DNA of 64,000 bases from an uncultured Planctomycetaceae bacterium (lineage in GTDB: Bacteria; Planctomycetota; Phycisphaerae; SM23-33). The stretch spans positions 387-64,386 of the forward strand of contig CAYRVX010000028.1 of assembly GCA_964427875.1 (NCBI GenBank), written 5' to 3'. The translations under genes were made by a program, and so were the position numbers. Positions 4,506-55,841 of the stretch are shown one piece after another (position 1 is the stretch's first letter; each line of letters opens with the position of its first letter). The notes under the pieces were generated by a model. That model saw only the letters and a list, made by a program, of their open reading frames with translations. It had not been told where the DNA came from and did not search any database.

Positions 4506-4530
4506 TGGCAGCAGACGGAGTCAACCCAAG

Positions 4531-30778: not shown

Positions 30779-30802
30779 GGCGGTACCCGACGGGCGGTGC
30801 GG

Positions 30803-32444: not shown

Positions 32445-32881
32445 TCGCCGAGCTGGATATGCCCCTGACCCGCCGGCTGGTCCCGATGGCCCTGGCCATC
32501 ATCGTCGTCGCGGCCACCATCGAGATGATCCGTCGCCGAAAGCTCCGGGAGGAGTACGCAATCCTCTGGCTGTTCGCCTCCGCGGTCCTGGTGGTGTTTG
32601 CGATCTTCCCCGGCCTGGTCGTGCTGCTCAGTCACGTCCTGCGGGTCAATTACCTGACGATCATCGTGATGGCGTGCTTCTTTTTCCTGGCGATGATCGT
32701 GATGCACTTCGCCGTTGTGATCTCACACCAGGGCGAACAGATCCGCAAACTGGCCGAGCACATCGCCCTCATGGAGAACGAGCTTCGACGGGGACGCTCC
32801 TCGGCGCCCAAGGGCGCGGAGAACGCGTCGGAAGCCCCGTCCGAGACCGCCGGTGGGCCCGAGCCCTCCGCCGCCGGGTGA
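32441..32881 (+). CDS. DUF2304-like small membrane protein that typically partners polyprenol-P GT2 enzymes
   Basis: 146 aa, 3-4 TM segments. Start overlaps the stop of the upstream GT2 by 4 nt. Confidence 0.5.
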   Translation: MIAELDMPLTRRLVPMALAIIVVAATIEMIRRRKLREEYAILWLFASAVLVVFAIFPGLVVLLSHVLRVNYLTIIVMACFFFLAMIVMHFAVVISHQGEQIRKLAEHIALMENELRRGRSSAPKGAENASEAPSETAGGPEPSAAG

Positions 32882-32945
32882 CGCGGGCAGCCCTGAAAGC
32901 CCACTGCCGCAACGCGCGTGCGCTGCTTCCCGAAGGCCGGGGCGA

Positions 32946-33797: not shown

Positions 33798-33863
33798 CGC
33801 TGCGGAATCTCAGGATTCGTGAGATTCGCGTGGTTCGTGGACTGCCGGTCGGCTCGAGTCTCG

Positions 33864-36051: not shown

Positions 36052-36173
36052 GACCGTGCCTCTCGTCGCCGGCGCCTTGGCAGCTCACCTGGGCGTATTA
36101 TTGCGGCGGCCGCGGGCGGCCGCAAGGTTCGTTCGGCTGCGCCCGGGCGCCGCCACGCCCGCCGAGAACCGCC

Positions 36174-37412
36174 TCAGTCCATCGAGAAATGCTCCGAGAA
36201 ATCCCGCACCCAGCCGCCCGCAAGGGCGTCGAAGTCGCGCTGGAGCGTGCGGAACCGCTCGGTCGACCAGTCCTTCCGGGCGATCGCGTCGCCCAGGGAG
36301 TAGGTCGGGAGCTTGAACATCAGGCTTGCCGTCGTCAGCGCCGTGCTGTTGCCGCCGATCACGATATCGTCGCTGCGCATCTGCGCGAGGATTCTCTCCG
36401 CCGCCTGCCCTTCGCCCAAAACGCGGACGCGCCCGGCGGCCACTTCGCTGATGGAGTCATACTTCCCCGGTACCTCCCGGGGATGCGGCTTGACGTAGAC
36501 GTCCAGCCCCTCGGCAACCAGCCTGCGGACGACGCTCTTGAGGAGATCCATGGTCTGCGGTCCCGGCAGGAAGCCGTCTTCGATCCAGGGCTGGGACAGG
36601 ATCAAGGCAGCAGGCCGGTCGGACGAGCGAGGCAGCAGGACCTTCTCGCCGACGGCGGTGAGGATCGCCTGGCGGTAGTCGGCCGCCACGTCGGCGTCCA
36701 GCGTCATGGTGCCGGTCGTCTCGTCCTGCCAGAACAGCAGCCTCCGCTCGACGGGATATGCCCGGACAACGGCCCGGAACGCCCACGTCCAGAGCAGGTA
36801 GGCCAGGCAGTCCAGCCAGTCGGTCGCGAAGATGCGCCCCTCGTCGGTCCGGTCCATTTTTCGGGCGAAGTTCCAGGACTCCCTGGAGGCGTAGGTGCTG
36901 AGCCCTTCGTCGAGGATCACGAACCGCACGTCGCGGGTCCGCAGCAGCCTCCAGGTGCTGATCTGCGCGAGGGTGAACACGGCCGCCCCCGGGTGATACG
37001 GCGAGGCGACGCGGAGAATCGGCAGGTGCCGCCGCGGGCGGCCACGCGGACCCAGCAGCCACAGCCGCACAAGGAGAGCCGCCATCCTTCCCACTTCCAG
37101 GACCCGACCCGCCCCCGGGCGGTCGAGGACCTGCCGGGCCGCGAGGAAGATGATCCTGCCGTCGGCCCGGGAGAGCGGCAGGTCGGCCTGGTCTATGAGC
37201 GTCCCTCTGCCCAGGTGCGGCAGGATCAGAACGACGCCCTTTCGCCGCTCGCCGTGGCTGCGAAGGCGGCTCACCCAGGCATCGGCTCCCATGGCATGCC
37301 AGGGCGAGGTGGCCGCCGCGATGAAGCCGAGGTCTTCCGTGGCAATAAGTCGCCGGATCTCCTCGACGGCTTCGCCGAAGCCCTTCAGCTCGATGCCAAC
37401 GGCCTGAGCCAA
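36174..37412 (-). CDS. Putative bacterial sialyltransferase-like glycosyltransferase
   Basis: Contains both signature short motifs of bacterial sialyltransferases: D/E-D/E-G ('VRFVILDEGLSTY') and HP ('YVKPHPREVPG'). Sits directly upstream of the CMP-nonulosonate synthetase and NeuB genes. Confidence 0.4.
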   Translation of the reverse strand: MAQAVGIELKGFGEAVEEIRRLIATEDLGFIAAATSPWHAMGADAWVSRLRSHGERRKGVVLILPHLGRGTLIDQADLPLSRADGRIIFLAARQVLDRPGAGRVLEVGRMAALLVRLWLLGPRGRPRRHLPILRVASPYHPGAAVFTLAQISTWRLLRTRDVRFVILDEGLSTYASRESWNFARKMDRTDEGRIFATDWLDCLAYLLWTWAFRAVVRAYPVERRLLFWQDETTGTMTLDADVAADYRQAILTAVGEKVLLPRSSDRPAALILSQPWIEDGFLPGPQTMDLLKSVVRRLVAEGLDVYVKPHPREVPGKYDSISEVAAGRVRVLGEGQAAERILAQMRSDDIVIGGNSTALTTASLMFKLPTYSLGDAIARKDWSTERFRTLQRDFDALAGGWVRDFSEHFSMD

Positions 37413-37584
37413 CGCATTCTCCTTGCGCCCGTCGACTGTCGGGATATCGGAAGGATTCTAGTGGATTCAAGGCAGGAATTCATCTGATGCAGCGTGGCCT
37501 CCGCCGACCAACGACCCTGGCGGCATGGAGAGAACCGCCCAAGAAACGCTTGTGAACCGCCCGGACCTGCTGATATAAGCACTG

Positions 37585-38835
37585 TTGGCCGCGCCGGAAT
37601 GGCTTTTCGTGCCCCGGGAGGAGCGCGACTTGCGGACGCAATCAGGGCCCAGCAAGCCGGAAGTGCTAGCCATCATACCCGCCCGCGGCGGGAGCAAGGG
37701 CATTCCGCGGAAGAACGTTCTTGCCCTGGCCGGAAAGCCGCTCATAGCCCGCACCATCGAGCAGGCCAAGGCAAGTGGGATCGTGACCCGAGTAGTCGTA
37801 TCGACCGACGACGAAGAGATCAGCCAGGTGTCCTTGTCCTGCGGCGCCGAGGTGGTGCGGCGCCCGGCGGAGATCAGCGGTGATGAGGCTTCCTCAGAGG
37901 CGGCGCTGCTGCACGTGCTCGAACACCTCCGGGAGACCGAGGGCTATCGCCCGGATCTCCTCGTCTTCCTCCAGTGCACGAGCCCGCTGACGCTGGCCGA
38001 GGACATCGACGGGACGGTCGAGGCCCTGCGCAGGCAGGAGGCGGACACGGCGTTGGCCGTCTCGCCGTTCCACTACTTCCTGTGGAAGACCGGTCCGAAC
38101 GGGCACGCCGCCGGGATCAACCACGATCCGTCCGTGCGCCTGCTGCGCCAGCAGCGCGAAGCGCAGTTCATCGAGACAGGTGCCGTCTACGTGATGAGGA
38201 CGGACGGGTTCCTGCGGCACGGCCATCGTTTCTTCGGGCGGACGGTGCTGCATGAGATCCCCATCGAGCGCCGGCTGGAGATCGACGAGCCGGTCGACTT
38301 CCAGATCGCGGATCTTCTCCTGAAGCGGCGCGAGCGAGCGGAGAAGACCCGGTCCCTGCCCCAGCCCGTGAAGGCACTGGTGATGGACTTCGACGGCGTT
38401 TTCACGGACAACAAGGTGGTCGTTCTCCCGGATTCCCGGGAAGCCGTCCTGTGCAACCGCGCCGACGGGATGGGCATACGCCTTCTCCGAGAGGTCGGCC
38501 TGCCCATGCTCGTGCTGTCCACGGAACAGGACCCGGTATGCCATGCCCGCTGTCGGAAACTCCAGCTTGACTGCCTCAACGCGGTCCAGGACAAGGCCCC
38601 GGTGCTGAGGGATTGGGCCGCGGATCGGGGGATTGCCCTGGACAAGACCGTGTACCTCGGCAACGACGTGAATGACCTGGAATGCATGGCGATCGTGGGA
38701 TGCCCGGCGGCGGTGTCTGACGCTCACCCGGCCGCCAGAAAGGCCGCCCGCATCGTGCTGTCGGCCCGCGGCGGACACGGCGCGGTCAGGGAGATCGCCG
38801 ACCTCATCCTTTCGCAGACAGGAGACGGTCAATGA
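37585..38835 (+). CDS. neuA: Bifunctional N-acylneuraminate (nonulosonate) cytidylyltransferase fused to a HAD KdsC-like nonulosonate-9-phosphate phosphatase
   Basis: N-terminus 'LAIIPARGGSKGIPRKN' (CMP-Kdo/NeuAc synthetase family). C-terminus 'VMDFDGVFTDNKVV...GNDVNDL' (HAD class IIIA, KdsC-like). Confidence 0.8.
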   Translation: MAAPEWLFVPREERDLRTQSGPSKPEVLAIIPARGGSKGIPRKNVLALAGKPLIARTIEQAKASGIVTRVVVSTDDEEISQVSLSCGAEVVRRPAEISGDEASSEAALLHVLEHLRETEGYRPDLLVFLQCTSPLTLAEDIDGTVEALRRQEADTALAVSPFHYFLWKTGPNGHAAGINHDPSVRLLRQQREAQFIETGAVYVMRTDGFLRHGHRFFGRTVLHEIPIERRLEIDEPVDFQIADLLLKRRERAEKTRSLPQPVKALVMDFDGVFTDNKVVVLPDSREAVLCNRADGMGIRLLREVGLPMLVLSTEQDPVCHARCRKLQLDCLNAVQDKAPVLRDWAADRGIALDKTVYLGNDVNDLECMAIVGCPAAVSDAHPAARKAARIVLSARGGHGAVREIADLILSQTGDGQ

Positions 38836-39710
38836 TTGACGCCGTGAGGATCGGCGAGCGTCTCGTCGGCAGCGGCCAGCCGGCCTACGTCGTCGGCGAG
38901 ATCGGACTGAACCACAACGGCGACGTGCAGGTCGCCAAGGACCTCATTGACGCCGCCATCGTAGCTGGATGCGACGCCGTCAAGTTCCAGAAGCGTACGC
39001 CCGAGCTTTGCGTGCCGGTCGAGCAGCGGCACCTGGTCCGCGAGACCCCTTGGGGCCTGATGACGTACATGGAGTACCGCGAGAAGGTGGAGCTCGGACA
39101 GGAGGCGTATGCCGAGATCGACCGCTATTGCACCCAGCGGGGCATTGTCTGGTACGCTTCCTGCTGGGACGAGGCATCCGTGGATTTCATGGAGCAGTTT
39201 CGTCCGCCGTGCCACAAGATCGCCTCCGCCTGCCTCACCGACGACGACCTGTTGAGGCACCATCGCCAGTATGGCCGACCGATCATCCTCTCCACCGGCA
39301 TGAGCACGCTGGAGCAGATCGACCACGCGGTCGAGGTGCTCGGCAAGGACGATCTGATCATCCTGCACTGCACCAGCACGTATCCGGCCAGGAACGACGA
39401 GATCAACCTTCGCTGCGTCCGTGCCCTCAGAGATCGGTACGGCGTGCCCGTCGGCTATTCCGGCCACGAAGTGGGCCTCCAGGTCACCCTGGCCGCGGTG
39501 GCCATCGGGGCCTGCTGCGTCGAGCGGCACATCACGTTGGACCGCACGATGTGGGGCAGTGACCATGCCGCATCCGTCGAGCCACACGGGCTCATCCGCC
39601 TCGTGCGCGACATCCGCGTCATCGAGCAGGCCATGGGAGACGGGCGAAAGGTCGTCTGGGACAGCGAAAAGCCTCTGATAGAGAAGCTGCGCCGCGTCGG
39701 GGGAGCTTAA
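38832..39710 (+). CDS. neuB: N-acetylneuraminate (nonulosonate / 9-phosphate) synthase, NeuB family, without the C-terminal SAF domain
   Basis: 'PAYVVGEIGLNHNGD...DAVKFQK' and 'ILHCTSTYPA'. 292 aa with no antifreeze-like domain. Overlaps the neuA stop. Confidence 0.8.
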   Translation: MIDAVRIGERLVGSGQPAYVVGEIGLNHNGDVQVAKDLIDAAIVAGCDAVKFQKRTPELCVPVEQRHLVRETPWGLMTYMEYREKVELGQEAYAEIDRYCTQRGIVWYASCWDEASVDFMEQFRPPCHKIASACLTDDDLLRHHRQYGRPIILSTGMSTLEQIDHAVEVLGKDDLIILHCTSTYPARNDEINLRCVRALRDRYGVPVGYSGHEVGLQVTLAAVAIGACCVERHITLDRTMWGSDHAASVEPHGLIRLVRDIRVIEQAMGDGRKVVWDSEKPLIEKLRRVGGA

Positions 39711-39782
39711 AGCGACGTTGCCGACCGGCCCGCCTTTATGTCCCCCGGCATGCCGGGCCTCCTACCGCGCTCTTTGGCTCGC

Positions 39783-41075
39783 TCAGCGGTTCTCTTTCGC
39801 AATCCGCCGCAAGAAGGCCACGCCTTCCGGGGCCTGCTGTCGCAGTTCCTCGGTCCTCTCGATGATCGCCCGTGAGAGCTCCTCGCGGGCCTCGAGGACC
39901 CTGCGCGCCTCCCGGACAACGTCGTCCAGGTGGATTGGCAGCGTCGCGATATCGAAGAGCCGCGTGGGGTAATCGTAGAGGTGGCACAGGGCGCGGGTCT
40001 TGTGGCTGTCGGCGCCCCACAGGAGGAAGGGCGTGCCGCCCAGCGTCGCCATGATCGAGGCGTGCCATCGACCCGAAACGAGCATGACCGAGCGCTTGAG
40101 CACCTCGATCAGCTCGGTATAGGGGCAATTGACAAGATCGAGCTTGGCCGCCTTCTTCCTCCTGGCCGCGCGGTTGACGCCCTCATGCGTCCGGGCGAAC
40201 CCGTCCACGACCACCACTTGGCGGCACACCTCCCGCAGCCGGTCGATCAACTCCGAGTAGACGTCGGCCACGTTCCATTTCACCGTGCTGGCGTCGCTTC
40301 GCATCCCCGCGGAGTCCCCCAGGCAGATAAACGGGCGGCTGAAGTCGACCAGTCGCTTCAGCTCCGCCGATGGCTCCCAGTGCTCCCGGGGGCGCAGCGT
40401 GAACAGCGCATCGGGGCAGAAACGGACCTCTCCCTGGTACCCGATGCGCCGCAGTTCGTCGATGGAGAGCGGCTCGCGAACGCTGACGTAGTCCAGCATC
40501 GGGTAAACCGTGCGGATCATCTCCTCGGCGTCGGCGTTGCCGGGGTCCACCGTGTGGTTGATGATCGCGCAGTACTTGCCGAAGTGCTTCCTGGCCATGT
40601 AGGCCATGAACAGCACGTAGAGAGCCCCGGGTCGGTATCTGCCGTCGGGCATCACGCCCCGTACGATGTGCCCCTCGGAGTTGATCACGACGCAGTCACA
40701 GTCCCGCAGGCAGCGGGCCTCGTATGGGAAGATCCGGCCGCCCAGCATCTGCTCGGCCGCGTGCTCGTACATGTCCAGCCGGCAGGGGACAGGCAGCTCC
40801 CGTGACTTCCGTCGCCTGAACTTTTCGGCCAACTCCTTTGCGCCCATCGAGATGATCACAGACTTGAGGTTCTGGATCATGCGCCCGGGAGGGCGCCATT
40901 GTGGCCAGCCGTCTGGCGGCGTATGCCACCGGAAGCTCCTGTAATCGATGATTCTGATCGGCATCGGTTCCCAGGCCTGGCGGATGAGTTTCAGCAGGGC
41001 ATCCGAGGTCGCGACGGAGCCGTAGTTGAAGCCCGTCCTCGTGTCACCCATGAACAACAGCTTCTTTTCCGACAT
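39783..41075 (-). CDS. Polysaccharide pyruvyl transferase family protein (CsaB/WcaK-like)
   Basis: Family-typical 'LLFMGDTRTGFNYG', 'VVINSEGH' and 'GRWHA' motifs. ATG 41075 has a GGAGAG RBS. The ORF extends to 41141. Confidence 0.55.
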   Translation of the reverse strand: MSEKKLLFMGDTRTGFNYGSVATSDALLKLIRQAWEPMPIRIIDYRSFRWHTPPDGWPQWRPPGRMIQNLKSVIISMGAKELAEKFRRRKSRELPVPCRLDMYEHAAEQMLGGRIFPYEARCLRDCDCVVINSEGHIVRGVMPDGRYRPGALYVLFMAYMARKHFGKYCAIINHTVDPGNADAEEMIRTVYPMLDYVSVREPLSIDELRRIGYQGEVRFCPDALFTLRPREHWEPSAELKRLVDFSRPFICLGDSAGMRSDASTVKWNVADVYSELIDRLREVCRQVVVVDGFARTHEGVNRAARRKKAAKLDLVNCPYTELIEVLKRSVMLVSGRWHASIMATLGGTPFLLWGADSHKTRALCHLYDYPTRLFDIATLPIHLDDVVREARRVLEAREELSRAIIERTEELRQQAPEGVAFLRRIAKENR

Positions 41076-41236
41076 GAGCGCTCTCCACAAGCAAGGAGCC
41101 CACGCGGGATCATACGATTTGCGTCCCGGTCGGCAAGCCACGGCCGGCTCGGCGCCCGGCGATGCGCCTGTGCCGCGCAGCGTCTTGATGACGGCCTCGC
41201 GGGCTCAGCACCGTCGCGGATCGGTCCCCCTTGGCC

Positions 41237-42532
41237 TCACGGCCCGCGGCATGCTTCGACCTCTCTGTTGAGCTTGTACCATGCCAGGCCGTTGGAGACA
41301 ACCGCCTGGAGCCCCATCCCGATGGCCATGGCGACAATCAGACCGTGATCGCCGTATCGCGACGCCAGCGCGAAGCTCAGCGCTACCGTGACGGCGCCCG
41401 ACAACACGGTGGAGACGGCCTGGGACCGCGTCTTCTTCAGGCCGTGGAGAATGTGGACGCCTTGCAGGTAGACCGTGTCGAGGGCACACGCCACGCCGGC
41501 TGCGATCAGCAGCGCAGGCGTCGGCGCGTACGACTCGGGCAGCGACAGATGCAGCACGAAAAAGGCGAAGTAGAGCCCGAGGTACATCACGAACACCAGC
41601 GCCAGGCTCGCCAGCATCGTGTTGCGGAGGATCTGCACCGCCTGTCTGGGGGCGCCGCGGCCGAAGGCCGCACCAATATCCGGGCGACGGGCCTCGAAGA
41701 GGGCGCGCGAGATCATCATGCCGGCCACCACAATCTGTGTGACGAGCGTATAGGGGGCAAGCTCCCCGAGCGACATGTATCGCGTTCCGATCCATCGCCC
41801 GCTCTGGCTTACCGCCCACAGCGCCAGCACGTGGAACGTCGTCGGCCAGGAGTACGACAGCGACTTGCCCAGCATGCTCCAGCGAAACCGGGCCCCTCGA
41901 AGGTACTTGCCCGCGTGGACCAAAACGATTGCGGCGGCCGCCCCCCTGCCAGCCGCCACTGCGATGATGCTCCGCAGGAATCCGTCCTCGACCCACGGGC
42001 CCAACGCCAGGAACGCCCCCAGGATGCCGAAGCCGCTCACCGCCGAGGCCACGAAGAACACGGCGGCATCGCCCCGGATGCGGATAAGCGTCAGCCCGAA
42101 GTCTCCGGCCACCAGAAGCACGACGACCAGCGAGACCCAGGTCTGGACGTCCAGCGACCCCAGCGAGATCGGCTCGATCACGCCGCCGAGACGAAGCACG
42201 CAGACGCACGCCACCAGCCCCAGCGTGACGAACCCCAGGGCGCCGAGGAGGGAGCTGAACAGCAGCTCCGCTTGACGGTGAGGCTGCTCGTAGTCAAAGT
42301 ACAGCCGACCCGGCGCCAGGTGAGCGTTCAAGGAGAACAGCGGCGTCAGGATCGCCACGGCGCTGACCATCAGGCCGAAACGCGTGAACTCCTCCGGCGT
42401 CAGCACGGCCACCAGGAACGGCAGAAGCAGGAGGTGCGCCGCCTTCTGGAGACTGCCCCCCAACAGATACAACGAAGTCCGGGCGAAGACCTGCCACCGG
42501 GAAGTGCCTGACCTGCCTTCGGGGGGCTTCAT
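41237..42532 (-). CDS. Wzx-like polysaccharide/oligosaccharide flippase (MOP superfamily)
   Basis: 431 aa, about 12 TM segments. Immediately downstream of the glycan-modifying genes. Confidence 0.6.
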   Translation of the reverse strand: MKPPEGRSGTSRWQVFARTSLYLLGGSLQKAAHLLLLPFLVAVLTPEEFTRFGLMVSAVAILTPLFSLNAHLAPGRLYFDYEQPHRQAELLFSSLLGALGFVTLGLVACVCVLRLGGVIEPISLGSLDVQTWVSLVVVLLVAGDFGLTLIRIRGDAAVFFVASAVSGFGILGAFLALGPWVEDGFLRSIIAVAAGRGAAAAIVLVHAGKYLRGARFRWSMLGKSLSYSWPTTFHVLALWAVSQSGRWIGTRYMSLGELAPYTLVTQIVVAGMMISRALFEARRPDIGAAFGRGAPRQAVQILRNTMLASLALVFVMYLGLYFAFFVLHLSLPESYAPTPALLIAAGVACALDTVYLQGVHILHGLKKTRSQAVSTVLSGAVTVALSFALASRYGDHGLIVAMAIGMGLQAVVSNGLAWYKLNREVEACRGP

Positions 42533-45260: not shown

Positions 45261-46967
45261 TCAGTCGACGAGAAACGCTTCGATGGCCGCGGCGCAGGCC
45301 GAGACCGCGACCGCCGCACAGCCAGGCGTCGCCCGCACGCCGCCTACCCACGCTTCGGGAGTCTCGCTGAAGTAGGCCTCGCCCGGCTGGTACATCATCC
45401 GGTAACAGAACCGGCGAGCCTCGGTGATCTGCCCGGGGAGCTCCCGCGAACCGGCCGGCGTCGTTCGGCCGGATCGCTTCAACGCCTCGGCCAGGCACAC
45501 GGCTGCCAGAGCGGTGTGCAGAGTGGACGGCGGGGCGCCTGCGACGGTGAAGCCGCCTGCTTCGTCCGGAAGCGCCCCGCTTGCCAACTGGGAGATTCTG
45601 CCGCTGGGGTCCGTTCGGCCGTCGGCCGTCGCAGGCAGCACCGCCCTGACGAGACCGGCGCGGCAGGCCCACAGGCGAGCGGCGAAGTCCGCCGGCCTGA
45701 CTTGCGCGAAGGCCTTGCGCAAGCCCCGGACCCGCACCGCATTTTCCTGGTCTCCGGCCAGTGCCAGCAGTGCGATGTAGAGCCCTTCGGCGGCCTTCGC
45801 CGACCGGCTGGCAGCCGAAGACGGCCCGGCGCGGGCGAGCTCGGCCAGCAGGCCGCGATGGAGCTCCGCGCGGAGGCCGAGCATTGCCTCATCCGGTTCC
45901 ACCTCTGCGATCGCCAGCGCCAGCAGCGCCGTGGCCGCGAGGGTCTCTTCGGGCCGGCCGGCCTCGACCAGCGCCCGGTTCCCGCTTCGCCTGGCCAAGC
46001 TGGACGCGCATTTCGCCGCCGCGGCGGCACTGCGGGCAAACTGCCGGTTCGGATGACGCCCGGCAAGACGGGCCATGGCACAGGTGGCGTAGAGATGATC
46101 CGGCATCGATGCCGGCTGGTCGTCCCGGCAGTACCGGCCGTCCTTCGCCTGGTGCAGCACAAGGTACCTGCCCACCTGTTCGGTGGCGGCTTGCAGCGTG
46201 GGCTCGTCGATCCTCTTGCGGACGGCCAGGTCCTTCCCGCGGAAGAGCTCGACAGTTCGGCCGCCGGGAAAGCCGACGTAGTGTCGGGTCGTGAAGACCG
46301 CCAGTCGCGGCGGCAGAGAGGCGTTCTGCGGCGTGAGACGGTATCGCAGCATCGCGCCCCGCCGCATCTGCTCGGCGTCCAGGCCCAGGACATACCCCCC
46401 CGAGGGGAGCACCCATGCCAAGCCGCCGATCCGGCCCGACTTGCGCGGCGCCGAGGGGGCGGTCGCCGCCGCCCCGGCCGGTTCGCCGCGAGAGTACACC
46501 AAGCCGGTCAGGCCGGGAACGATCGCCGCGGCGAGGTCGGCCCGGTCCACCGGCTGCCGGCCGGAGAGGACCTCCACTTCCACCGTCAGGGCATCGAGGA
46601 CCTTCCGATCAACGCGATCGGGCAGCCTGGGGCTTCGCATCGCGGTCAACGCCGCCGCCAGCATGTTCCGGCAGACGGCCGCGCCGGTTCGCACCTGGAC
46701 GGCCACCACGGCGCCGCGGCTGCGCAGCGTGACGGCCACTGGATCGCTCCGGCCTCGCAGCGCCCGCAACTCGACGGGAATGGGCATCGCCTCGGGGCCT
46801 ATGCGATGCGTCAGATAGCGGTTCATGCCTTCGCGGGCCAGTTGAACAAGGGCCCGGCCTTGAGTGATCGTGAGCTTCGGCAGACTCCGAAGGCCCGTCC
46901 CGTCGGCCCGGGCCATTGGACAACAGAACCACAGCGCGACCAGTGACAGCCTCAGTTGGTTTGCCAT
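45261..46967 (-). CDS. Secreted hypothetical protein, Ala/Arg-rich
   Basis: Signal peptide 'MANQLRLSLVALWFCCPMARA'. 568 aa. No confident domain. Confidence 0.45.
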   Translation of the reverse strand: MANQLRLSLVALWFCCPMARADGTGLRSLPKLTITQGRALVQLAREGMNRYLTHRIGPEAMPIPVELRALRGRSDPVAVTLRSRGAVVAVQVRTGAAVCRNMLAAALTAMRSPRLPDRVDRKVLDALTVEVEVLSGRQPVDRADLAAAIVPGLTGLVYSRGEPAGAAATAPSAPRKSGRIGGLAWVLPSGGYVLGLDAEQMRRGAMLRYRLTPQNASLPPRLAVFTTRHYVGFPGGRTVELFRGKDLAVRKRIDEPTLQAATEQVGRYLVLHQAKDGRYCRDDQPASMPDHLYATCAMARLAGRHPNRQFARSAAAAAKCASSLARRSGNRALVEAGRPEETLAATALLALAIAEVEPDEAMLGLRAELHRGLLAELARAGPSSAASRSAKAAEGLYIALLALAGDQENAVRVRGLRKAFAQVRPADFAARLWACRAGLVRAVLPATADGRTDPSGRISQLASGALPDEAGGFTVAGAPPSTLHTALAAVCLAEALKRSGRTTPAGSRELPGQITEARRFCYRMMYQPGEAYFSETPEAWVGGVRATPGCAAVAVSACAAAIEAFLVD

Positions 46968-47360
46968 GGTGAGGGTTATAGGGCCCCGAGGCGTCGGAGT
47001 AAAGGGCCGAATCGGCCTTCCCGGGCCCTCTGAAAGGCGATGAGCGGCATTTTCCTTTCCTGCGAGGTGATCTGGACGGATGTGTCGTTCTTAAAAGGCT
47101 TTGTGTGTGTTCTCGCCCGGAAGCGGCCCGGGAGCGGAGAGCCAGGCCGCCGAGGCGCCCTGAATGGCCATTTCGGGCGTAAGAGGCGGGATGAAAAGGT
47201 TTTATCTCTCATCACCGGCCATCGCTGCGCTGCGGAGCGCCGACCCGGCCGGCCGCGGCAGGATGGTTTTTTTGTTGCATGTCGCTTTGGGCTGCTTACA
47301 CTTGTCGCGGACGGCAGTTCTGACGATCCTGAACGGCCGGAGGGCTAGAGGACGTCCGAA

Positions 47361-50030
47361 ATGGCGAACGTCACATACGACGACCGCAGTTTAATGGTGG
47401 ATGGCGAACGGATCTGGCTAGTCAGCGGCTCGATGCACTACTTCCGCCTTCCGTCGGCCTTGTGGAGAGATCGGCTGCTGAAGGCCAAGCGCGGAGGCCT
47501 GAACTGCATCTCCACGTACGTGGCCTGGAACTACCATGAGCCGGTCGAGGGCCAGTGGGAGACCTCCGGCGACAGAGACGTGGCGGCTTTCGTTCGTCTT
47601 GCGGAGGAGCTGGGTCTCTACGTGATCCTCCGTCCCGGCCCGTATATCTGCGCCGACTGGGATTTCGGGGGGCTGCCTTCCTGGTTGACGAGCAAGACCG
47701 GCGTGGTGTACCGCACCAGCAGTGCCGCATACAGCCACTATTTCGACAAGTACTTCCGACAGATGCTGCCGCAACTGGCCGACCAGCAGGTCAGCCGCGG
47801 CGGCAACATCATCCTGATTCAGAACGAAAACGGCTACTACATGACCACGATGCCGGATCGCCTGAATCACCTGGAGTTCATCAGCCAGTTGTTCAGGCGA
47901 AGCGGCTTTGAAATCCCCATCATCAACTGCAATCAGTTCTCCGATCCGCCCTTGCCGGACAGCATCGAGTGCGTTTGCGGCGGCCAGGACACGGTCCAGC
48001 GGCTCAAGCGCCTGCGTCTGCGCCAGTCGGGCGCGCCGCAGATGGCCATCGAGTTCTATACCGGCCGATTCGATGCCTGGGGCGGCGAGCATCATACCGC
48101 CGACGCCCGCGACACGGCCCGCAGGGCCATGGAGATCCTCGGCTGCGGCTCTCAGCTCAACTACTACATGTACCACGGCGGGACGAACTTCGGCTTCTGG
48201 GGCAGCCGCCTGAGCGACTCGGATGCCTCCTACGAGACCACCAGCTATGACTACGACGCCCCGCTGGCCGAAGGCGGCGGGCTCACCGAGAAGTACTACC
48301 TGACCCGCCTGGCAAATATGCTCGGGAACTACATGGGCCCGTTCCTGGCCCCCTGCATTGCGCCGATGCCGGCCGTCACCGTGCACGACTCGACGGCCGT
48401 GATGACTCTTACCGGTCCGGCGGGGTCGTGGGCGTTTGCGACCAACAACGGCCGCAGCGAGATCGATACGGCGCGGATCTGCCTGCCGCGAGGCGGGGAG
48501 CTGACGATTCCCCTGGGGACCCTCGGTGCCGCGGCAGTGCCGTTTGACCTGCAATTGGGGCCGAACAGGATGCTCGAGCGGGCCAACCTGACGCCGCTGG
48601 GTCTCTTCGGCGACAGCGTGTTGGTGTTTCACGGTCCCCCCGGCTGGAAGGCATGTATTCGGATCAACGGCCGGGAGCTTCGCGCCGCGGTGCCCGCGGG
48701 CGACGAGCCCGTGATCATCGAATTCGAGGATCTCCGGGTCGTGCTGGTAAGCAGTGATCTCGCCACGCGGACCTGGTTTGTGGAAGATACGCTCGTGTTC
48801 GGGCCGAGCTTCGTCGGCGAGACCCTGGAGGATATCAGGCACCATCGCGGCGCAAGGCAATGCGCCCTGCTGCCGCTGGGAGGCAAGCTGACGCACAGGA
48901 AGGCGGCCCCCGGCGGCAGGTCCTCCGCCCGGGCGGCGCCGAAGCTGAAGCCCTGGAAACGCGTCAGCGTATGCACCGAGCCTGTTTCCGCCGATCTCGA
49001 GTGGCAGCCGGTGGAGAGGCCTTGCGACGCCGACAAGCTCGGCGTCCACCACGGCTACATCTGGCACCGGCTGGAGTGGTCTGAGCCGAAGGCCCACAAA
49101 CGCAACCTGTTCCTGCCGGACTGCGAGGACCGCGCGACGGTCTACCTCAACGGCTCCCTGCTGGGAATATGGGGCCGAAGTGAGGACGCCTCCCGCCAGC
49201 CCATGCCCGCCTCCGTCAAGCGGGACCGGAACGTCCTGATCCTGCTGGTGGACAACCTCGGCCGAGTCGCTTCCGGCTGGCGATTGGGCGGAGCGAAGGG
49301 CCTGTTCGGCCACGTGTACGACGCCAAGGGCCTGCGGATTCGCCGGCCGAAACTCAAGCAACTGGAGAAGTTCCCGCGACGGATCGTGCCGCGAGGGCTG
49401 TCCCACCTCATCGACTCGCTGGAGTCCCTGCCTGTCTGGTCGCTGGACGTGGACCTTTCGCTGTCGGAAGTCTCGCCCGTGCACCTGTCGTTCACCGACG
49501 TGCCGTATCACGTGGCGGTGCTCTGCAACGACCGGACGGTGGGCTTCTTCCCCTGCAACGGGCGGAACTTCGGCGACCTCACTCTCGCCGCCGGCCTCCG
49601 GAAGGGCAAGAACCTCCTGCGACTGCTGATATGGGGAGACGTCGAGGCGAGTGTGGCGGAGAAGATCCAGTTCCACAGCCTCCTGAGCGCGATCTCCCAG
49701 GAGGCGACCGGGAGCTATCGGACGTGGCAGATGCCCACTCCCGGCGGACCCGTCGTCGGCAAGGACCAGCCGGCCTGGTACGCCTCGCGTTTCACGTATC
49801 AGCCGCAGGATCGCCCGCTGTTCGCACACATCGCCGGCGCGAGAAAGGGGCAGTTGTTCATCAACGGCCGCAACGCCGGACGATTCTGGACCGTCGGCCC
49901 TCAGCAGTACTACTACCTTCCGGAGTGCTGGCTGGCAGAAGACAACGAGCTGCTTCTCTTCGTCGAGCAGGGCGACCTGCCGCGTCGGACGCGCCTGGAG
50001 TTTCGTCCGCTCGGCCCGTACCGCGAGTAG
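47361..50030 (+). CDS. Glycoside hydrolase family 35 beta-galactosidase
   Basis: 'VSGSMHYFRLP...LNCISTYVAWNYHEP...DWDFGGLP' and 'IILIQNENGYY', which carries the catalytic acid/base NEN motif. 889 aa. Confidence 0.85.
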   Translation: MANVTYDDRSLMVDGERIWLVSGSMHYFRLPSALWRDRLLKAKRGGLNCISTYVAWNYHEPVEGQWETSGDRDVAAFVRLAEELGLYVILRPGPYICADWDFGGLPSWLTSKTGVVYRTSSAAYSHYFDKYFRQMLPQLADQQVSRGGNIILIQNENGYYMTTMPDRLNHLEFISQLFRRSGFEIPIINCNQFSDPPLPDSIECVCGGQDTVQRLKRLRLRQSGAPQMAIEFYTGRFDAWGGEHHTADARDTARRAMEILGCGSQLNYYMYHGGTNFGFWGSRLSDSDASYETTSYDYDAPLAEGGGLTEKYYLTRLANMLGNYMGPFLAPCIAPMPAVTVHDSTAVMTLTGPAGSWAFATNNGRSEIDTARICLPRGGELTIPLGTLGAAAVPFDLQLGPNRMLERANLTPLGLFGDSVLVFHGPPGWKACIRINGRELRAAVPAGDEPVIIEFEDLRVVLVSSDLATRTWFVEDTLVFGPSFVGETLEDIRHHRGARQCALLPLGGKLTHRKAAPGGRSSARAAPKLKPWKRVSVCTEPVSADLEWQPVERPCDADKLGVHHGYIWHRLEWSEPKAHKRNLFLPDCEDRATVYLNGSLLGIWGRSEDASRQPMPASVKRDRNVLILLVDNLGRVASGWRLGGAKGLFGHVYDAKGLRIRRPKLKQLEKFPRRIVPRGLSHLIDSLESLPVWSLDVDLSLSEVSPVHLSFTDVPYHVAVLCNDRTVGFFPCNGRNFGDLTLAAGLRKGKNLLRLLIWGDVEASVAEKIQFHSLLSAISQEATGSYRTWQMPTPGGPVVGKDQPAWYASRFTYQPQDRPLFAHIAGARKGQLFINGRNAGRFWTVGPQQYYYLPECWLAEDNELLLFVEQGDLPRRTRLEFRPLGPYRE

Positions 50031-50247
50031 AGGCTCACCGAGCGACGGCAGCGGTCCGGCCGAGGGGGCGACAGAACCGCCGCGGCTTTTCGCTTGAACT
50101 TCTGCGGAATTTTTGCTTGCTTGCCGTGATTCCGTCAACTAGGATAAGTTGCGGTGGCAGGATGGTTTCCTGCATTTCTTCGTCCGGGATCGACTAACGG
50201 ACCCGTTTTCATAACCGTCAAGCCGCGTCGTTGTGAAAGGGATCTTA

Positions 50248-50562
50248 ATGGCTACCGTGACCAAGAAGGAACTGGTGGACCGCATCGCCGACCAGACCGA
50301 CACCAAGCGGGTGGTCGTCAAGAAGATTGTCCAGGGCTTCCTCAATGAGATCATCAACGAGCTCGGCCGGGGCAATCGTCTTGAGTTTCGGGACTTCGGC
50401 GTCTTCGAGACGAAGGAGCGAGCCGCCCGCATCGCGCAGAACCCCAAGACGCTCCAGCGCGTCGAGGTCCCGCCGAAGAGGACGGTGAAGTTCAAGGTCG
50501 GCCGCCTTATGAAGATCAAGCTACAGGAAGGCTTGGCGAGAGATCAGGGCCTCCTGCCGTGA
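50248..50562 (+). CDS. HU/IHF-family DNA-binding protein
   Basis: 'MATVTKKELVDRIA..' plus 'RDFGVFETKERAARIAQNPKT...VPPKRTVKFK'. RBS AAGGGA 8 nt upstream. AT-richer leader. Confidence 0.8.
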   Translation: MATVTKKELVDRIADQTDTKRVVVKKIVQGFLNEIINELGRGNRLEFRDFGVFETKERAARIAQNPKTLQRVEVPPKRTVKFKVGRLMKIKLQEGLARDQGLLP

Positions 50563-50719: not shown

Positions 50720-52051
50720 ATGGGCAGGGCGACGATCGAACAGATTGCTGCCGCCGGTGTTGTGGGCGCCGGGGGGGCCGGGTTTCCCACGCACGTCAAG
50801 CTCTCCGCCGAGGCCGACACCGTCCTGATCAACGCGGCCGAATGCGAGCCCCTGCTGCACAAGGACAAGGAGATCCTGCGCAGCTTCCCCGACGAGGTGC
50901 TCGCCGGGCTGGCGATCGCCATCGAGCTCCTCGGCGCCGAACGGGGAATCGTGGGCGTCAAGGCCAAGTACGCCGGCGTCATCGAAACGCTTCGCGGCAA
51001 GCTCGCGGGCAACATGGACGTCGCGCCCCTCCGCGACGCCTACCCCGCCGGCGACGAGCTCATTCTCGTCTACGACGTCCTCGGGCGCGTCGTCCCGCCG
51101 GGCGGCATCCCCCTGCACGTGGGCGCGGTGGTCATGAACGTGGAGACGGCCTTGAACGTGGCCGGCGCCGCCGACGGCCCCGTCACAAGGACGTTTCTGA
51201 CGGTCGCCGGGGCCGTCGCCAGCCCGGTAACGCTCCGCGTGCCGGTGGGCGCGTCGATCTCCGCGTGCGTGGCCGCCGCGGGCGGGCCCACGTGCCCGAC
51301 GCCCAATTACCTCGTCGGCGGCGTGATGATGGGCTACCTCGAAGACGACCACGACGCGCCCGTGGACAAGACCACCGGGGGCATCGTCGTCCTGCCGGAC
51401 GAGCACGTGGTCGTCCGCCGGCGCCGGCAGGACTGGAAGCAGATCGCCCGCATCGGCCGCAGCGCCTGCGACCAGTGCAGCTTCTGCACCGAGTTGTGCC
51501 CGCGCTGGCTGCTGGGTCACCCGATCGAGCCGCACCGGGCCATGCGGTCGCTGGGGTTCAATCTCGTCGGCGAGGCGAACGTGCGCGGCACGGCCTACTG
51601 CTGCGAGTGCAACCTGTGCAGCCTCTACTCCTGCCCGGAGGACCTCGACCCGAAGAACGTCTGCACGCAGAACAAGCGGCGGCTGGCCGCCGAGGGCGCC
51701 GCGTGGCAGGACCCGCCGTTCAACGAGCGCCGAGCCGAGCTGCACCTGAACGACCGCAAGGCCCCCATGAGGCGGCTGATGCAGAAGCTCGGCCTGACGG
51801 GCTTCGACAACGTCGGCCCGCTGGTTGACGCGGACGTCGCGGCCGAGAGGGTCGGCATCAGGCTCAAGCAGCACGTCGGCGCCCCGTGCGAGCCGGCGGT
51901 TCAGGTCGGCCGGAAGGTCGCCGAGGGCGACGTGGTCGCCCGGCCGCCCGTCATCGACGGCAAGCCCGCGCTCGGCGCGGCGGTTCACGCGTCGATCGAC
52001 GGCGAAGTCGCCGCCATCGAAGACGGCATCGTGTGGATCGAGAAGAGATAG
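50720..52051 (+). CDS. pduS: PduS-like cobalamin reductase / RnfC-family flavoprotein with two [4Fe-4S] clusters
   Basis: N-terminal 'GVVGAGGAGFPTHVKL' (RnfC/PduS NAD(H)-binding signature), SLBB-type middle, 'CDQCSFCTELCP' and 'CCECNLCSLYSCP' clusters. 443 aa. Confidence 0.75.
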   Translation: MGRATIEQIAAAGVVGAGGAGFPTHVKLSAEADTVLINAAECEPLLHKDKEILRSFPDEVLAGLAIAIELLGAERGIVGVKAKYAGVIETLRGKLAGNMDVAPLRDAYPAGDELILVYDVLGRVVPPGGIPLHVGAVVMNVETALNVAGAADGPVTRTFLTVAGAVASPVTLRVPVGASISACVAAAGGPTCPTPNYLVGGVMMGYLEDDHDAPVDKTTGGIVVLPDEHVVVRRRRQDWKQIARIGRSACDQCSFCTELCPRWLLGHPIEPHRAMRSLGFNLVGEANVRGTAYCCECNLCSLYSCPEDLDPKNVCTQNKRRLAAEGAAWQDPPFNERRAELHLNDRKAPMRRLMQKLGLTGFDNVGPLVDADVAAERVGIRLKQHVGAPCEPAVQVGRKVAEGDVVARPPVIDGKPALGAAVHASIDGEVAAIEDGIVWIEKR

Positions 52052-52074
52052 CCCCAACAGGACGGTCCGAGCAA

Positions 52075-52635
52075 ATGGCTACACCGAGATCGATTGGCGC
52101 GATCGAGCTTTCCAGCGTGGCGGTGGGCTACCGGGTCCAGGACGCCATGCTCGACGCCGCGGCCGTGGAAATCCTCATCGCCAGGACGATCTGCTCCGGC
52201 AAGTACTTCATCGTCGTCGGCGGTTCGGTCAGCGACGTGAAGGCCGCCGTCGCCGCGGCCCTTCGGGCCGGCGACGAGGCCGTCATCGACCACCTCGTGA
52301 TCCCCAACGTGCACGAGTCGGTCTTCCCCGCGCTTGGCCAGTCGGTCGTGATCGACGAGGACGAGGTCGGCGCGCTCGGCGTGGTGGAGACGTTCAGCGG
52401 CGTGAGCATCGTTGCCGCCGCCGACGCCGCCGCCAAGGCCGCCCGCGTCAAGCTGTTCCGCATCCACGTGGCCATGGCGCTGGGGGGCAAGGGCTTCTGC
52501 CTGATGACCGGCACCGTCGCCGACTGCCGCGCCGGCGTAGCCGCCGCCGCCGCCGAGGCCCGCCAGCGCGGCCTGCTCGTCGCCGAAGTCGTCATCCCCC
52601 GCCCCAACCGAGAACTGTTCAGCGAGTATATCTGA
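52075..52635 (+). CDS. pduT: PduT-like tandem-BMC-domain (BMC-T) microcompartment shell protein with the conserved Fe-S-ligand Cys
   Basis: Two BMC domains. 'IGAIELSSVAVGYRVQDAMLDAAAVEILIARTICSGKYFIVVGG' parallels Salmonella PduT '[44 protein letters not shown]'. C-terminal 'VIPRPNRELF' matches 'VIPRPHEAMW'. Confidence 0.8.
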   Translation: MATPRSIGAIELSSVAVGYRVQDAMLDAAAVEILIARTICSGKYFIVVGGSVSDVKAAVAAALRAGDEAVIDHLVIPNVHESVFPALGQSVVIDEDEVGALGVVETFSGVSIVAAADAAAKAARVKLFRIHVAMALGGKGFCLMTGTVADCRAGVAAAAAEARQRGLLVAEVVIPRPNRELFSEYI

Positions 52636-52707
52636 GGACGTTTCGCCGCTGCACCTGGGAATGGCCGGTCCGGGGAAATGAGGTATAATACGGGGCAGGG
52701 ACCGACA

Positions 52708-53196
52708 ATGCGCAAGCTGCACCTATACATCGAGACGTCCGTCTGGTCGCACTGGTACGCAGATGACACGCCCGAGCGGCGAGATGAGACAAGAGCCTTC
52801 CTCCGACGGTGTGCCGCTGCGCCGGATGACGTCGTCCTATACATAAGTCGCGCCGTTCTCGACGAGCTCGCGGCGACACCTGCAGAGCGAGGTGAGCAAT
52901 TGCTGGGGCTTGTGACGGAGTTCGATCCTGTTGTAGTCGAAAGCAGCAGCGAGGCGGATGATCTGGCAGCAGCGTACCTATCCCACGGCGCCATGCCCCC
53001 GGGCTCGCTTGTGGACGCCATGCACGCTGCTCTTGCGACCGTCCACGGCGTGGACGTGCTGGTGAGCTGGAACTGCCGTCACCTGGCCAATCTGTCTCGC
53101 AGGCGCAAGATCAACGCGGTGAACGCGGTCATGGGATATGCCGGCAACTTGGACATACTGACACCAATGGAGATCTTCGAAGATGCCCATCAGTGA
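52708..53196 (+). CDS. PIN-domain (VapC-like) ribonuclease toxin candidate
   Basis: 'KLHLYIETSVW' (acidic residue 1 at the strand end), 'LVDAMHAALA' (third Asp), 'SWNCRHLANL' (NxRHF-type C-terminal motif). RBS AGGGA. 162 aa. Confidence 0.6.
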   Translation: MRKLHLYIETSVWSHWYADDTPERRDETRAFLRRCAAAPDDVVLYISRAVLDELAATPAERGEQLLGLVTEFDPVVVESSSEADDLAAAYLSHGAMPPGSLVDAMHAALATVHGVDVLVSWNCRHLANLSRRRKINAVNAVMGYAGNLDILTPMEIFEDAHQ

Positions 53197-53389
53197 AGTA
53201 CAGCGCGAGGTCTGGCGAATCCGAAAGGAGCTGGACCGGAGGCTCGCGAAGATGACTCCCGAGCAGCGAACGGCACACTTCCGCGGGGTCTTCGACCGCA
53301 TCGAGGCCAAGTTCGGAATGAGGCTGAAGCTGAGACGGGCCCAGCCGGGGCAGCGGAGCCCCATCATCGCGGACCCTCCTCAGGAATAG
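53183..53389 (+). CDS. Small conserved protein, paralog 1 (candidate antitoxin/partner of the PIN protein)
   Basis: 68 aa. Overlaps the PIN stop by 14 nt. 'EVWRIRKELDRRLAKMTPEQ...KFGMRLKLR' shares about 45% identity with paralog 2. Confidence 0.5.
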   Translation: MPISEVQREVWRIRKELDRRLAKMTPEQRTAHFRGVFDRIEAKFGMRLKLRRAQPGQRSPIIADPPQE

Positions 53390-53505
53390 CCGCGCAGTAT
53401 CGGCGCGGCCGAGCTCTCCGACCGGCGGTCCTGTGCGGCGGGTCATCGTCTGGCAGGACAACGCGGCAAATGGATCAGCCGGACACCCAGATCGCTTGAC
53501 TGACG

Positions 53506-53703
53506 ATGAGCTACAGCAAGAGACAGATTGAGGTCTGGAAGGCCAGAGAGGAACTCGACAGGAAGCTGGCCGACATGACGCCACAGGAGATCATCGAGTA
53601 CGCCGATGGGGCCCTGGAACGTGCGCGTGCCCGGACCGGGAGACAACTGAAGCTGAGGGTCGCCGATGCCTCCCCGGACACAGCAGTCGAGGCGAATCAG
53701 TAG
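53506..53703 (+). CDS. Small conserved protein, paralog 2 (candidate antitoxin/partner of the HEPN protein)
   Basis: 65 aa. 'EVWKAREELDRKLADMTPQE...RTGRQLKLR'. Its stop TAG overlaps the GTG start of the next gene (TAGTG). Confidence 0.5.
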   Translation: MSYSKRQIEVWKAREELDRKLADMTPQEIIEYADGALERARARTGRQLKLRVADASPDTAVEANQ

Positions 53704-54989
53704 TGGCCCCGTCGCGTGAACAAGGCTCCGAGGTCTCCGTTTGGCCGCTGCTTTACCTGCGCGCGAACTGGGCCGGCCCGATGATCGACTGCTTCGACCT
53801 GGGTGTGAAGCTGATTCGCGCAGATTCGGAAACGCTCGCCAGGATGAAGGACATCGTGGGCCCCAACGCCAGGTTCCCAGGCCACTATGTGTTCGACAGT
53901 GATGTTCAGTGGCTCCTGGCGATCCCTGTCGCGCAGGAGGTCCAGTACGCCAACAGCGCGAAGCTGGGCATCTCGACACGGGAAGAAGTTGCTCGTGCGC
54001 TGGTGGACACGTTCCTGCTCTCTCTCCGGCTGGTTCGGCAAACGGCCGCAGTCTGTCCCGTATGGTTCGGCGCCAAGGTTGATCAGAACGGGTTGCACAC
54101 GCCGCTCGACTCAGACAGAACCAAGGACTACGAAGACCCGTGGTTGGACTGGGATCCGGGAAGGGAGTTCGGGGGGGAGACCTTGGAGGAAGGCGAGCTT
54201 GAGGCCACCGAGACGTTTGAAGAAGGCGACCTTGGGTCGATCGCTGACCTCTGGGACCGTCTGGTGCATTCCTTCTCACTGAAGGGCTTTCTTACCCAGG
54301 CGCACACGGAGATGTTCTGGCAAGAGATCGACAGGAGGGCAACTGGCGAGGCGGACGACTGGTTCCGGGCGCGCAGCCCAGCGATATCGGCCGACCCCGG
54401 CTTGGCCGAGCCGATGGTCTCTGTCTTGCGGCAAGACCAAGTGTGGCAACAGCGGCATTCTGAGGCATTCAGGAACACGCTCAGGGCCCGCCTCGACGAG
54501 ATATTCCTCCGCGCAACGCGGATCGGTAGGGCATTGGGGCTCTTCAACGAGGCATTCGGCTCCCATCCGGTAGGCGCCTTTCTGCTCATGTGCTTCGCCC
54601 TTGAGACGCTCTTCACCGTGGAGAAACCAAGTAACAGAAGGGGCATCACGTGCAAGTTGAAGAGGAGAGCGGCAGAGCTGCTCCGTCCCGGAGGGCAGGC
54701 TGGTAAACCCAAGGAGGTGAAGGACAAGGTAGGTCGCATCCTGAAGGAACGAGGCGATCTCGTCCATGGCAGCAAGCGGATGGATTGCGTACCTGAAAAG
54801 ACGCAGAGGGAGGCGGTTGACCTTACCCGCTTGAGTCTCCGGACCGTGCTGTCTCGGCCTGAGCTGCTGAAGCTTTACTGCGATCCCTCTACGTCAGCCA
54901 CACCCGGAAAGAAGGAAGACGTGGGCGGGTTGAGGGAGTTCTTCCGCAAGTTGGACGGTGGTGCAGGATGTTCCGGTGAAGGAAAGTGA
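53703..54989 (+). CDS. Large protein with a C-terminal HEPN (Abi/Apea-like) domain; N-terminal ~300 aa of unknown function
   Basis: C-terminus 'AFLLMCFALETLFTVEK...KRRAAELL...ILKERGDLVHGSKR' gives the HEPN Rx4H motif. GTG start coupled to the upstream small ORF. Confidence 0.5.
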   Translation: MAPSREQGSEVSVWPLLYLRANWAGPMIDCFDLGVKLIRADSETLARMKDIVGPNARFPGHYVFDSDVQWLLAIPVAQEVQYANSAKLGISTREEVARALVDTFLLSLRLVRQTAAVCPVWFGAKVDQNGLHTPLDSDRTKDYEDPWLDWDPGREFGGETLEEGELEATETFEEGDLGSIADLWDRLVHSFSLKGFLTQAHTEMFWQEIDRRATGEADDWFRARSPAISADPGLAEPMVSVLRQDQVWQQRHSEAFRNTLRARLDEIFLRATRIGRALGLFNEAFGSHPVGAFLLMCFALETLFTVEKPSNRRGITCKLKRRAAELLRPGGQAGKPKEVKDKVGRILKERGDLVHGSKRMDCVPEKTQREAVDLTRLSLRTVLSRPELLKLYCDPSTSATPGKKEDVGGLREFFRKLDGGAGCSGEGK

Positions 54990-55088: not shown

Positions 55089-55841
55089 ATGCGACTCAAG
55101 CAATTCATTCTGACATCCTCGATGGGCAAGCGGTTGATCGGTAAGGGCGTGGCGGCGCATCCGGTGATCCGGGACGTGCTGGAGTCCGGCACGCTGGTGA
55201 TCGTGGCCGGCACGACGAACGGGTACGTGGCCGAGGAGATCCTCGCCGCCACGGGGCAGCAGGAGGGCTTCACGCGCAAGGGCTTTCGCCGCGGCGTGAC
55301 CGTCCCGCCGGGCAAGAAGGCGCCGCAGGCGGAGTTCACCGGCGACGTGGTCCTGGTAAAGGGCGCCTGGCAGAAGGGCAAGGAGATCTTCGACGTCGCC
55401 GACGACCTCAAGGCCGGCGACGTAGTGCTCAAGGGCGCCAACGCGCTCAGCGCCGACCTGGGCCGGGCGGCCGTGCTGATCGGCCATCCGCAGGCCGGCA
55501 CCATCGGGGCGGCCCTGCCGGCCGTGCTCGGGCGGCGCGTCCGCCTGATCATCCCCGTCGGCCTCGAGAAGCGGATCTGCGACGACCTCGACCAGATCGC
55601 CGCGGAGATCAACGCCCCCGAGGCCGAGGGGCCGCGGCTGCTGCCGATGCCCGGCGAGCCGTTCACCGAGCTCGACGCGATCGAGCTGCTCTCCGACGCG
55701 GAGGCATTCCTCGTCGCCGCCGGCGGCATCTGCGGCGCCGAGGGCGCCGTCTGGGTCGCCGTCCGGGGCAGCGACCGGCAGGTGGCCGCGGCAGAAGAGA
55801 TCATCGCCTCCGTCGCCGACGAGCCGCCTTGCGAGGCGTAG
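55089..55841 (+). CDS. Hypothetical protein (Gly/Ala-rich alpha/beta; '[15 protein letters not shown]', '[11 protein letters not shown]')
   Basis: 250-aa ORF from ATG 55089. No family recognised from sequence alone. Confidence 0.35.

Follow-up and report, generated by a model that had tools for sequence, protein, structure and literature searches.

An isolated PduS/PduT-type gene pair in an uncultured planctomycete as a likely satellite module of a PVM-type microcompartment

In a 64-kb stretch of DNA from an uncultured planctomycete (GenBank assembly GCA_964427875.1, contig CAYRVX010000028.1; hereafter the window, whose numbering is used for all positions), two adjacent plus-strand genes encode a PduS-type flavoprotein and a PduT-type shell protein of bacterial microcompartments (BMCs). 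The question raised by this locus is what the electron-transfer pair of a metabolosome does apart from a shell: the initial annotation left the choice between service to a shell encoded elsewhere and a shell-independent role. The non-canonical occurrence of the PduS/PduT pair has been analyzed by Sutter et al. (PNAS 2024; PMC11626177), who renamed the two proteins MNdh (metabolosome NADH dehydrogenase) and BMC-T^SE. We consider it likely that the pair in the window is an MNdh/BMC-T^SE module for cofactor recycling in an aldehyde-oxidizing microcompartment, most likely of the fucose/rhamnose type of Planctomycetes and Verrucomicrobia (PVM; Erbilgin et al., 2014; loci in PMC4207490 and PMC8217296), encoded as a satellite locus, that is, as one or more shell genes distal from the locus that carries BMC-H plus BMC-P (as defined by Sutter, 2021; PMC8217296).

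The domain order of the upstream protein is the one expected of MNdh. Pfam profiles match Complex1_51K (PF01512) at residues 9-148 (E=9.8e-44) and SLBB (PF10531) at residues 161-205, followed in the C-terminal half by a Fer4_17 4Fe-4S dicluster at residues 249-310 and the barrel-sandwich domain RnfC_N (PF13375) at residues 375-435. The closest solved structures are the RnfC chains 9eri_C and 7zc6_C (E about 1e-42). Relative to these, RnfC_N is circularly permuted, with residues 376-435 of the query aligned to residues 33-87 of RnfC; the Pfam matches and the permuted alignment together bear out the PduS architecture ascribed to this gene in the initial annotation. The protein contains two 4Fe-4S motifs, C250/253/256/260 and C294/297/300/305, the latter of the form CxxCxxCxxxxCP, with a four-residue spacer ahead of the last cysteine. 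Across 71 sequences, all eight cluster cysteines are 100% conserved and the glycine-rich FMN/NADH loop, AGVVGAGGAGFPTHVKL, which aligns with RnfC motifs, is at least 90% conserved.

The downstream protein, identical to the database protein P0001, consists of two tandem PF00936 BMC domains (Pfam, E=7e-38), and its assignment to the BMC fold thus held on profile search. It aligns end to end with PduT of Citrobacter (3pac, E=3.4e-40) and Salmonella (3n79, E=4.2e-37), with a single gap of two residues; the "residue for residue" correspondence with PduT originally described stands as far as the alignment is concerned but overstates the identity, which is 39.7% to 3pac. Cys40, located in the motif T-I-C-S-G-K (more widely, R-T-I-C-S-G-K-Y), aligns in the comparison with 3pac and 3n79 with Cys38 of PduT, the cysteine of T-I-C-P-G-K, so the pore cysteine had been correctly recognized as shared. 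Cys40, Ser41, Gly42 and Lys43 are invariant among 28 aligned relatives, and by analogy with the PduT proteins the C-S-G-K pore of the trimer is a putative 4Fe-4S binding site. The pore motif (residues 38-42) is encoded at window positions 52186-52200. A second invariant cysteine, Cys142 in G-G-K-G-x-C-L-M-T, has no cysteine counterpart in enteric PduT.

No terminator-like site was found by scan on the plus strand between the two genes, which are probably co-transcribed. Of the 82 loci of other organisms that we compared, 77 have a PduS-like gene directly upstream of the BMC-T gene, at distances of 6-320 nt, and three of the five loci that lack it are contig ends; the 2024 survey gives immediate adjacency in 97% of cases (PMC11626177). 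This adjacency, together with the retained Fe-S cysteines, FMN/NADH loop and pore cysteine, argues that the two genes form a functional unit that is conserved under strong constraint. Members of the BMC-T family are numerous in Planctomycetota: in a scan of one genome per GTDB species, relatives are encoded in 545 species genomes, and the best 80 of these are nearly all metagenome-assembled planctomycete genomes. The best 120 database matches listed are 74-100% identical to the BMC-T protein, and the few named sources among them are Phycisphaerae, Thermoguttaceae, Pirellulales, Planctomycetaceae and Planctomycetota.

The pair is isolated on the source contig, to which this statement applies. 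A 75,761-bp JGI metagenome contig (the source contig) contains the window without any difference, and two contigs of another sample match it exactly as well. The JGI contig Ga0309839_1000158 (metagenome 3300028837) is identical to the contigs of 3300008516. On the right, the source contig stops 1.2 kb beyond the window, 12.5 kb downstream of pduT, with only the remainder of a DUF362 gene and an 86-aa open reading frame (ORF) up to its end; on the left, it extends 10.6 kb past the window, of which the 7.4 kb nearest the window were read and contain the rest of an Mrp/Mbx-like membrane complex, without BMC genes. In a phmmer search of the six frames of the window with PduA, EutN, PduT and planctomycete PVM proteins as queries, the BMC-T ORF was the sole match, and Pfam profiles run on 54 ORFs that together span most of the 64 kb gave no PF00171, PF06130, PF00596 or PF03319 and no second PF00936. 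These searches agree with the originally reported lack of BMC-H, BMC-P, aldehyde dehydrogenase (AldDH), PduL and diol dehydratase in the 64 kb. The flanks, too, are as first described, with an HU gene (PF00216) upstream and genes for a PIN-domain protein and an RTX/cadherin-repeat protein downstream. Thus, no BMC-H/BMC-P locus is present from -7.4 to +65.2 kb, which fits the distal arrangement of the shell gene in a PVM satellite locus.

Such isolation is the rule among the relatives. When the count is limited to the 24 loci with at least 9 kb of sequence on either side, 22 (about 92%) contain no shell gene besides the pair, and in the neighborhoods of three loci (L004, L006 and L007) the pair is the sole common element. 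Eight relatives, by contrast, have the pair at a distance of 0-10 kb from a canonical PVM main locus, so that an AldDH-containing microcompartment locus accompanies it. In L031, the pair and two unrelated genes are followed by DeoR, PduL, BMC-H, BMC-H, acetate kinase, BMC-P, AldDH and BMC-P; in L097, a metagenome contig, the pair directly abuts the PVM locus, which ends with a class II aldolase; and in L069, L014, L022, L018, L025 and L012 the distance ranges from 1.7 to about 10 kb. Throughout the BMC-T tree, the proteins of these PVM-linked pairs are interspersed with the satellite ones; they belong to a single clade of orthologs in which the connection with the main locus has been lost or gained repeatedly. 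A search with the AldDH of L031 is uninformative on distal co-occurrence, the only contigs shared with the pair being two (35,112 and 25,623 bp) in which the genes are already adjacent. In addition, five loci of Pirellulales/Thermoguttaceae (L021, L025, L030, L035 and L056) carry an acetate/propionate-kinase homolog shortly downstream of the pair, forming a three-gene satellite; this homolog is a paralog, given its match to the PVM AckA at E about 1e-61.

The published data point in the same direction. In PVM compartments, 18 of 20 occurrences of the pair are in satellite loci (PMC11626177), and in the tree of Supplementary Data 4 of the 2021 catalog, T_pdut entries of 184-190 aa from Planctomycetes are labeled "PVM (sat)", one of them from the cultured Thermogutta terrifontis (THTE_3178; PMC8217296). 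The satellite alternative of the initial annotation is therefore the published explanation, since both papers place planctomycete/PVM pairs in satellites, and it was upheld by the neighborhood comparison, in which the pair proved mostly unlinked and PVM-adjoining in eight relatives; the shell-independent alternative gained no positive support. It is unlikely, although conceivable, that the pair serves another microcompartment type, such as a fragmented "FRAG" or a MUF-type metabolosome with scattered shell genes. The FRAG compartments of Planctomycetes have shell genes at up to six places, the T_pdut clade also contains FRAG, MIC and SPU satellites of other phyla (PMC8217296), and no PVM gene of the source organism was among the loci listed by a metagenome scan with PVM aldolases. 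Nevertheless, all relatives with visible shell genes nearby show the PVM order (PduL, acetate kinase, AldDH, class II aldolase), and these include L012, which belongs to the subclade of the window itself and has a PVM-type aldolase and BMC-P downstream.

The BMC-T protein of the window falls into a subclade with those of L012 and L009. The gene order in L012 is that of the window, GH35, HU, PduS and PduT followed by GlmS and TPR genes on the opposite strand; further on, it contains a second TPR gene, an AbiEi-like gene and a SPOR gene, and then a PF00596 aldolase, an RpiB-like gene and BMC-P, a PVM tail that starts 7.4 kb downstream of pduT. In L009, whose BMC-T is 89% identical, the L012 order is retained up to the SPOR gene, where the contig ends. 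The window diverges from this order past the TPR gene, the DUF362 gene coming next before the contig stops. Given the position of the PVM tail in L012, a main locus may lie just past the present sequence, and the end of the contig 12.5 kb downstream of pduT accounts for its not having been found.

In the mechanism proposed for aldehyde-oxidizing compartments, the pair regenerates NAD+ inside the shell by relaying electrons outward from FMN over three 4Fe-4S clusters, and NADH-dependent reduction of the Fe-S clusters has been demonstrated for the Clostridium botulinum GRM1 proteins (PMC11626177). By analogy with this homolog, NADH oxidation and transfer to BMC-T are predicted for the planctomycete pair. 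An aldehyde dehydrogenase within the compartment would reduce NAD+ to NADH, and MNdh, presumably docked at the lumen face of the BMC-T trimer, would oxidize the NADH at its FMN. The two 4Fe-4S clusters of MNdh would then hand the electrons on to a third one in the trimer pore, held by Cys40 of each of the three subunits, from which they would exit to a cytosolic acceptor. By this path from MNdh through the pore cluster to the cytosol, NAD+ would be regenerated within the shell without converting part of the aldehyde to alcohol.

The classical role of PduS is a different one, and the flavoprotein could accordingly be read as a cobalamin reductase serving a B12-dependent enzyme, the original biochemical assignment of the Salmonella and Citrobacter proteins (PMC4207490, PMC11626177). 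We regard this as very improbable: no diol dehydratase or ethanolamine ammonia-lyase was seen in the window or in the PVM loci of the relatives, the PVM pathway is aldolase-based with no known B12 enzyme, and the B12 role has been argued to be at most indirect (PMC11626177).

Several observations weigh against the assignment of the pair to a PVM satellite module. Both proteins score below the curated NCBIfam cutoffs, MNdh with 218.8 bits against 245.95 for the rnfC subfamily and BMC-T with 110.7 bits against 250.3 for eut_PduT (TIGR02526), which indicates that they are divergent family members rather than equivalogs of the enteric proteins. The CP(G/S)K pore motif has been termed universal for MNdh-associated BMC-T (PMC11626177), whereas all 83 planctomycete relatives tallied have C-S-G-K, with serine in place of the proline. 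Neither BMC-H nor BMC-P is encoded between -7.4 kb and +65.2 kb, and the main BMC locus that the source organism would be expected to possess was not seen in the window and the read parts of the contig. A metagenome scan with PVM aldolases gave no contig from samples Ga0111033 or Ga0309839 among the matches listed (80 loci). Finally, no external electron acceptor is identifiable in the neighborhood of the pair.

Two further readings were considered. In the first, the BMC-T trimer and the flavoprotein would act by themselves as an NADH:acceptor oxidoreductase, and the organism would have no other microcompartment genes, a reading that could draw on the absence of shell genes from the read parts of the 75.7-kb contig and on the strong conservation of the pair as an isolated unit in hundreds of genomes. 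We consider it quite unlikely: according to the literature, genomes that do possess a PVM main locus normally carry the pair in isolation (PMC11626177), and in eight relatives from different parts of the tree the same orthologs are physically joined to PVM loci. There is a similarly small chance that the source organism, and perhaps many of the 545 species, lack any main locus and use the pair as a shell-independent NADH-oxidizing redox scaffold; in a weaker variant of this idea, the invariant C-S-G-K might give the planctomycete cluster properties unlike those of the CP(G/S)K proteins. In the second reading, the pair would be the decaying remnant of a lost microcompartment locus, standing alone next to an inserted toxin island of low GC content at third codon positions (GC3). 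This is almost certainly not the case: both reading frames are intact, their GC3 (0.94 for MNdh and 0.91 for BMC-T) is in line with that of native neighbor genes, identity to the relatives is 64-81% for MNdh and 68-89% for BMC-T, and every ligand residue is retained. The satellite module remains the explanation that we favor. An unlinked pair is the norm in planctomycetes, and the present case is ordinary rather than a new kind of locus because the satellite placement was catalogued in 2021 and the mechanism explained in 2024.

Table 1. Coordinates of the gene pair and of the adjacent island genes (window numbering).
Feature	Position	Strand	Location	Remarks
MNdh, PduS-type metabolosome NADH dehydrogenase	50720-52051	+	pair	443 aa; Pfam, RnfC structure matches, conserved ligands
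Intergenic spacer	52052-52074	+	pair	23 nt between the MNdh and BMC-T genes
BMC-T^SE, PduT-type tandem-domain shell trimer protein	52075-52635	+	pair	186 aa, ATG at 52075; two PF00936, PduT structures
PIN-domain protein	52678/52708-53196		island	only island protein with a Pfam match
Two paralogous small proteins	53183-53389 and 53506-53703		island	no Pfam or NCBIfam family
428-aa protein	53703-54989		island	no Pfam or NCBIfam family

Upstream of the pair (window 45261-50562), a 568-aa protein whose N-terminal part weakly matches AMMECR1, encoded on the minus strand, is followed by a GH35 beta-galactosidase and HU, an order common to the Phycisphaerae-like relatives; an HU gene is found close upstream of pduS in 12 relatives. 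The GH35 gene and the sulfatase genes that are also located upstream of the pair fit a polysaccharide degrader. On the other side, an inserted island of ~2.3 kb (window 52678-54989; Table 1) separates pduT from the next conserved gene. Its GC3 is 0.71-0.81, compared to 0.91-0.94 in the flanking genes, and its content varies, with only one small protein in L009 and the PIN, small and 428-aa genes in L048. PADLOC and NCBIfam searches of the PIN island found nothing.

Beyond the island, a 250-aa protein (55089-55841; ORF from 54996) was considered as a third component or electron acceptor of the module, its gene being directly after pduT in nine Phycisphaerae-like relatives. This candidate was rejected: the protein belongs to a huge, highly conserved family (5075 matches) that occurs in unrelated contexts in Anaerolineae, where it does not adjoin BMC genes and where its homologs are ~65% identical to the window protein. 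Sequence searches of Pfam, NCBIfam and the PDB gave no match for it, and it lacks an Fe-S or flavin motif. Its confident AlphaFold model (pLDDT 89.6) is weakly similar to the folds of eIF2B-alpha, ribose-1,5-bisphosphate isomerase and RpiA (Foldseek E=6e-3, TM 0.38), which hints at a resemblance to sugar-phosphate-binding eIF2B/RpiA-like proteins.

Several other parts of the contig deserve mention. The Mrp/Mbx-like operon occupies window positions 1-6390 and about 7 kb further leftward (L093); it encodes MnhE/F/G, MbhD/E and NuoK/L/M/H/B/C/D-like subunits, an FeS-assembly-P protein and a 619-aa GltD-like Fe-S flavoprotein, is preceded by an ArsR-type regulator, and probably specifies an ion-translocating complex linked to ferredoxin or NAD(P)H. 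Nothing that would connect this operon with the pair, 44 kb away, was found. A surface-glycan cluster at 28790-42532 encodes NeuB, a CMP-sugar cytidylyltransferase-HAD fusion, a polysialyltransferase-like PF07388 protein, GT2 glycosyltransferases, a pyruvyl transferase, a flippase, a methyltransferase and a PMT_2 protein, which suggests nonulosonic-acid decoration in this planctomycete. Identical sequence is found in two independent metagenome assemblies, which break within ~170 bp of each other, 1.0-1.2 kb past the right end of the window (L089 1-1183 and L090), which suggests a repeat or strain-variable region. A search for tRNA genes came up empty for both the contig end and the whole window.

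The discovery value of this locus is small, the module, its mechanism and its satellite habit in planctomycetes having been published. For annotation, the practical consequence is that an isolated planctomycete pduS-pduT pair can be treated as an NAD+-recycling accessory of a PVM-type compartment rather than as an anomaly. What the comparison adds is scale, with relatives in 545 species genomes as against 20 PVM occurrences in the 2024 survey, as well as a continuum from fused to distant arrangements and the clade-wide C-S-G-K pore motif.

Among the known systems, RnfC (7zc6, 9eri, 8ahx) shares with MNdh the FMN/NADH domain and two 4Fe-4S clusters; in MNdh, however, the RnfC_N domain is C-terminal, there are no adjoining rnfABDEG genes, and a shell protein replaces the membrane complex as the partner. 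Both proteins of the window are homologous to PduS and PduT of Salmonella enterica and Citrobacter freundii, with BMC-T aligned over its full length and Cys40 corresponding to Cys38; identity to 3pac is nevertheless only ~40%, and, in contrast to the pdu genes, the pair lies outside any 20-gene operon and is not accompanied by a B12-dependent signature enzyme. With respect to the PVM microcompartment, the pairs of the relatives stand beside the set DeoR-PduL-BMC-H-BMC-H-acetate kinase-BMC-P-AldDH-BMC-P-aldolase, which is the PVM gene set, whereas this set was not found on the contig of the window. In the PVM locus as published, a lactate/malate-type dehydrogenase recycles NAD+ (PMC4207490, PMC8217296); the MNdh/BMC-T^SE pair has been reported only 20 times for this type, which has 285 catalogued loci. 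Another close match is provided by the MNdh/BMC-T^SE pairs of the 2024 survey (PMC11626177). The pair in the window differs from these in its C-S-G-K pore and the four-residue spacer of the second cluster motif, and it comes from an uncultured, probably Phycisphaerae-like planctomycete; it shares with them the four-domain flavoprotein with a C-terminal, permuted RnfC_N and two 4Fe-4S motifs, the adjacent PduT-type BMC-T with its pore cysteine, and a satellite placement like that of the PVM pairs.

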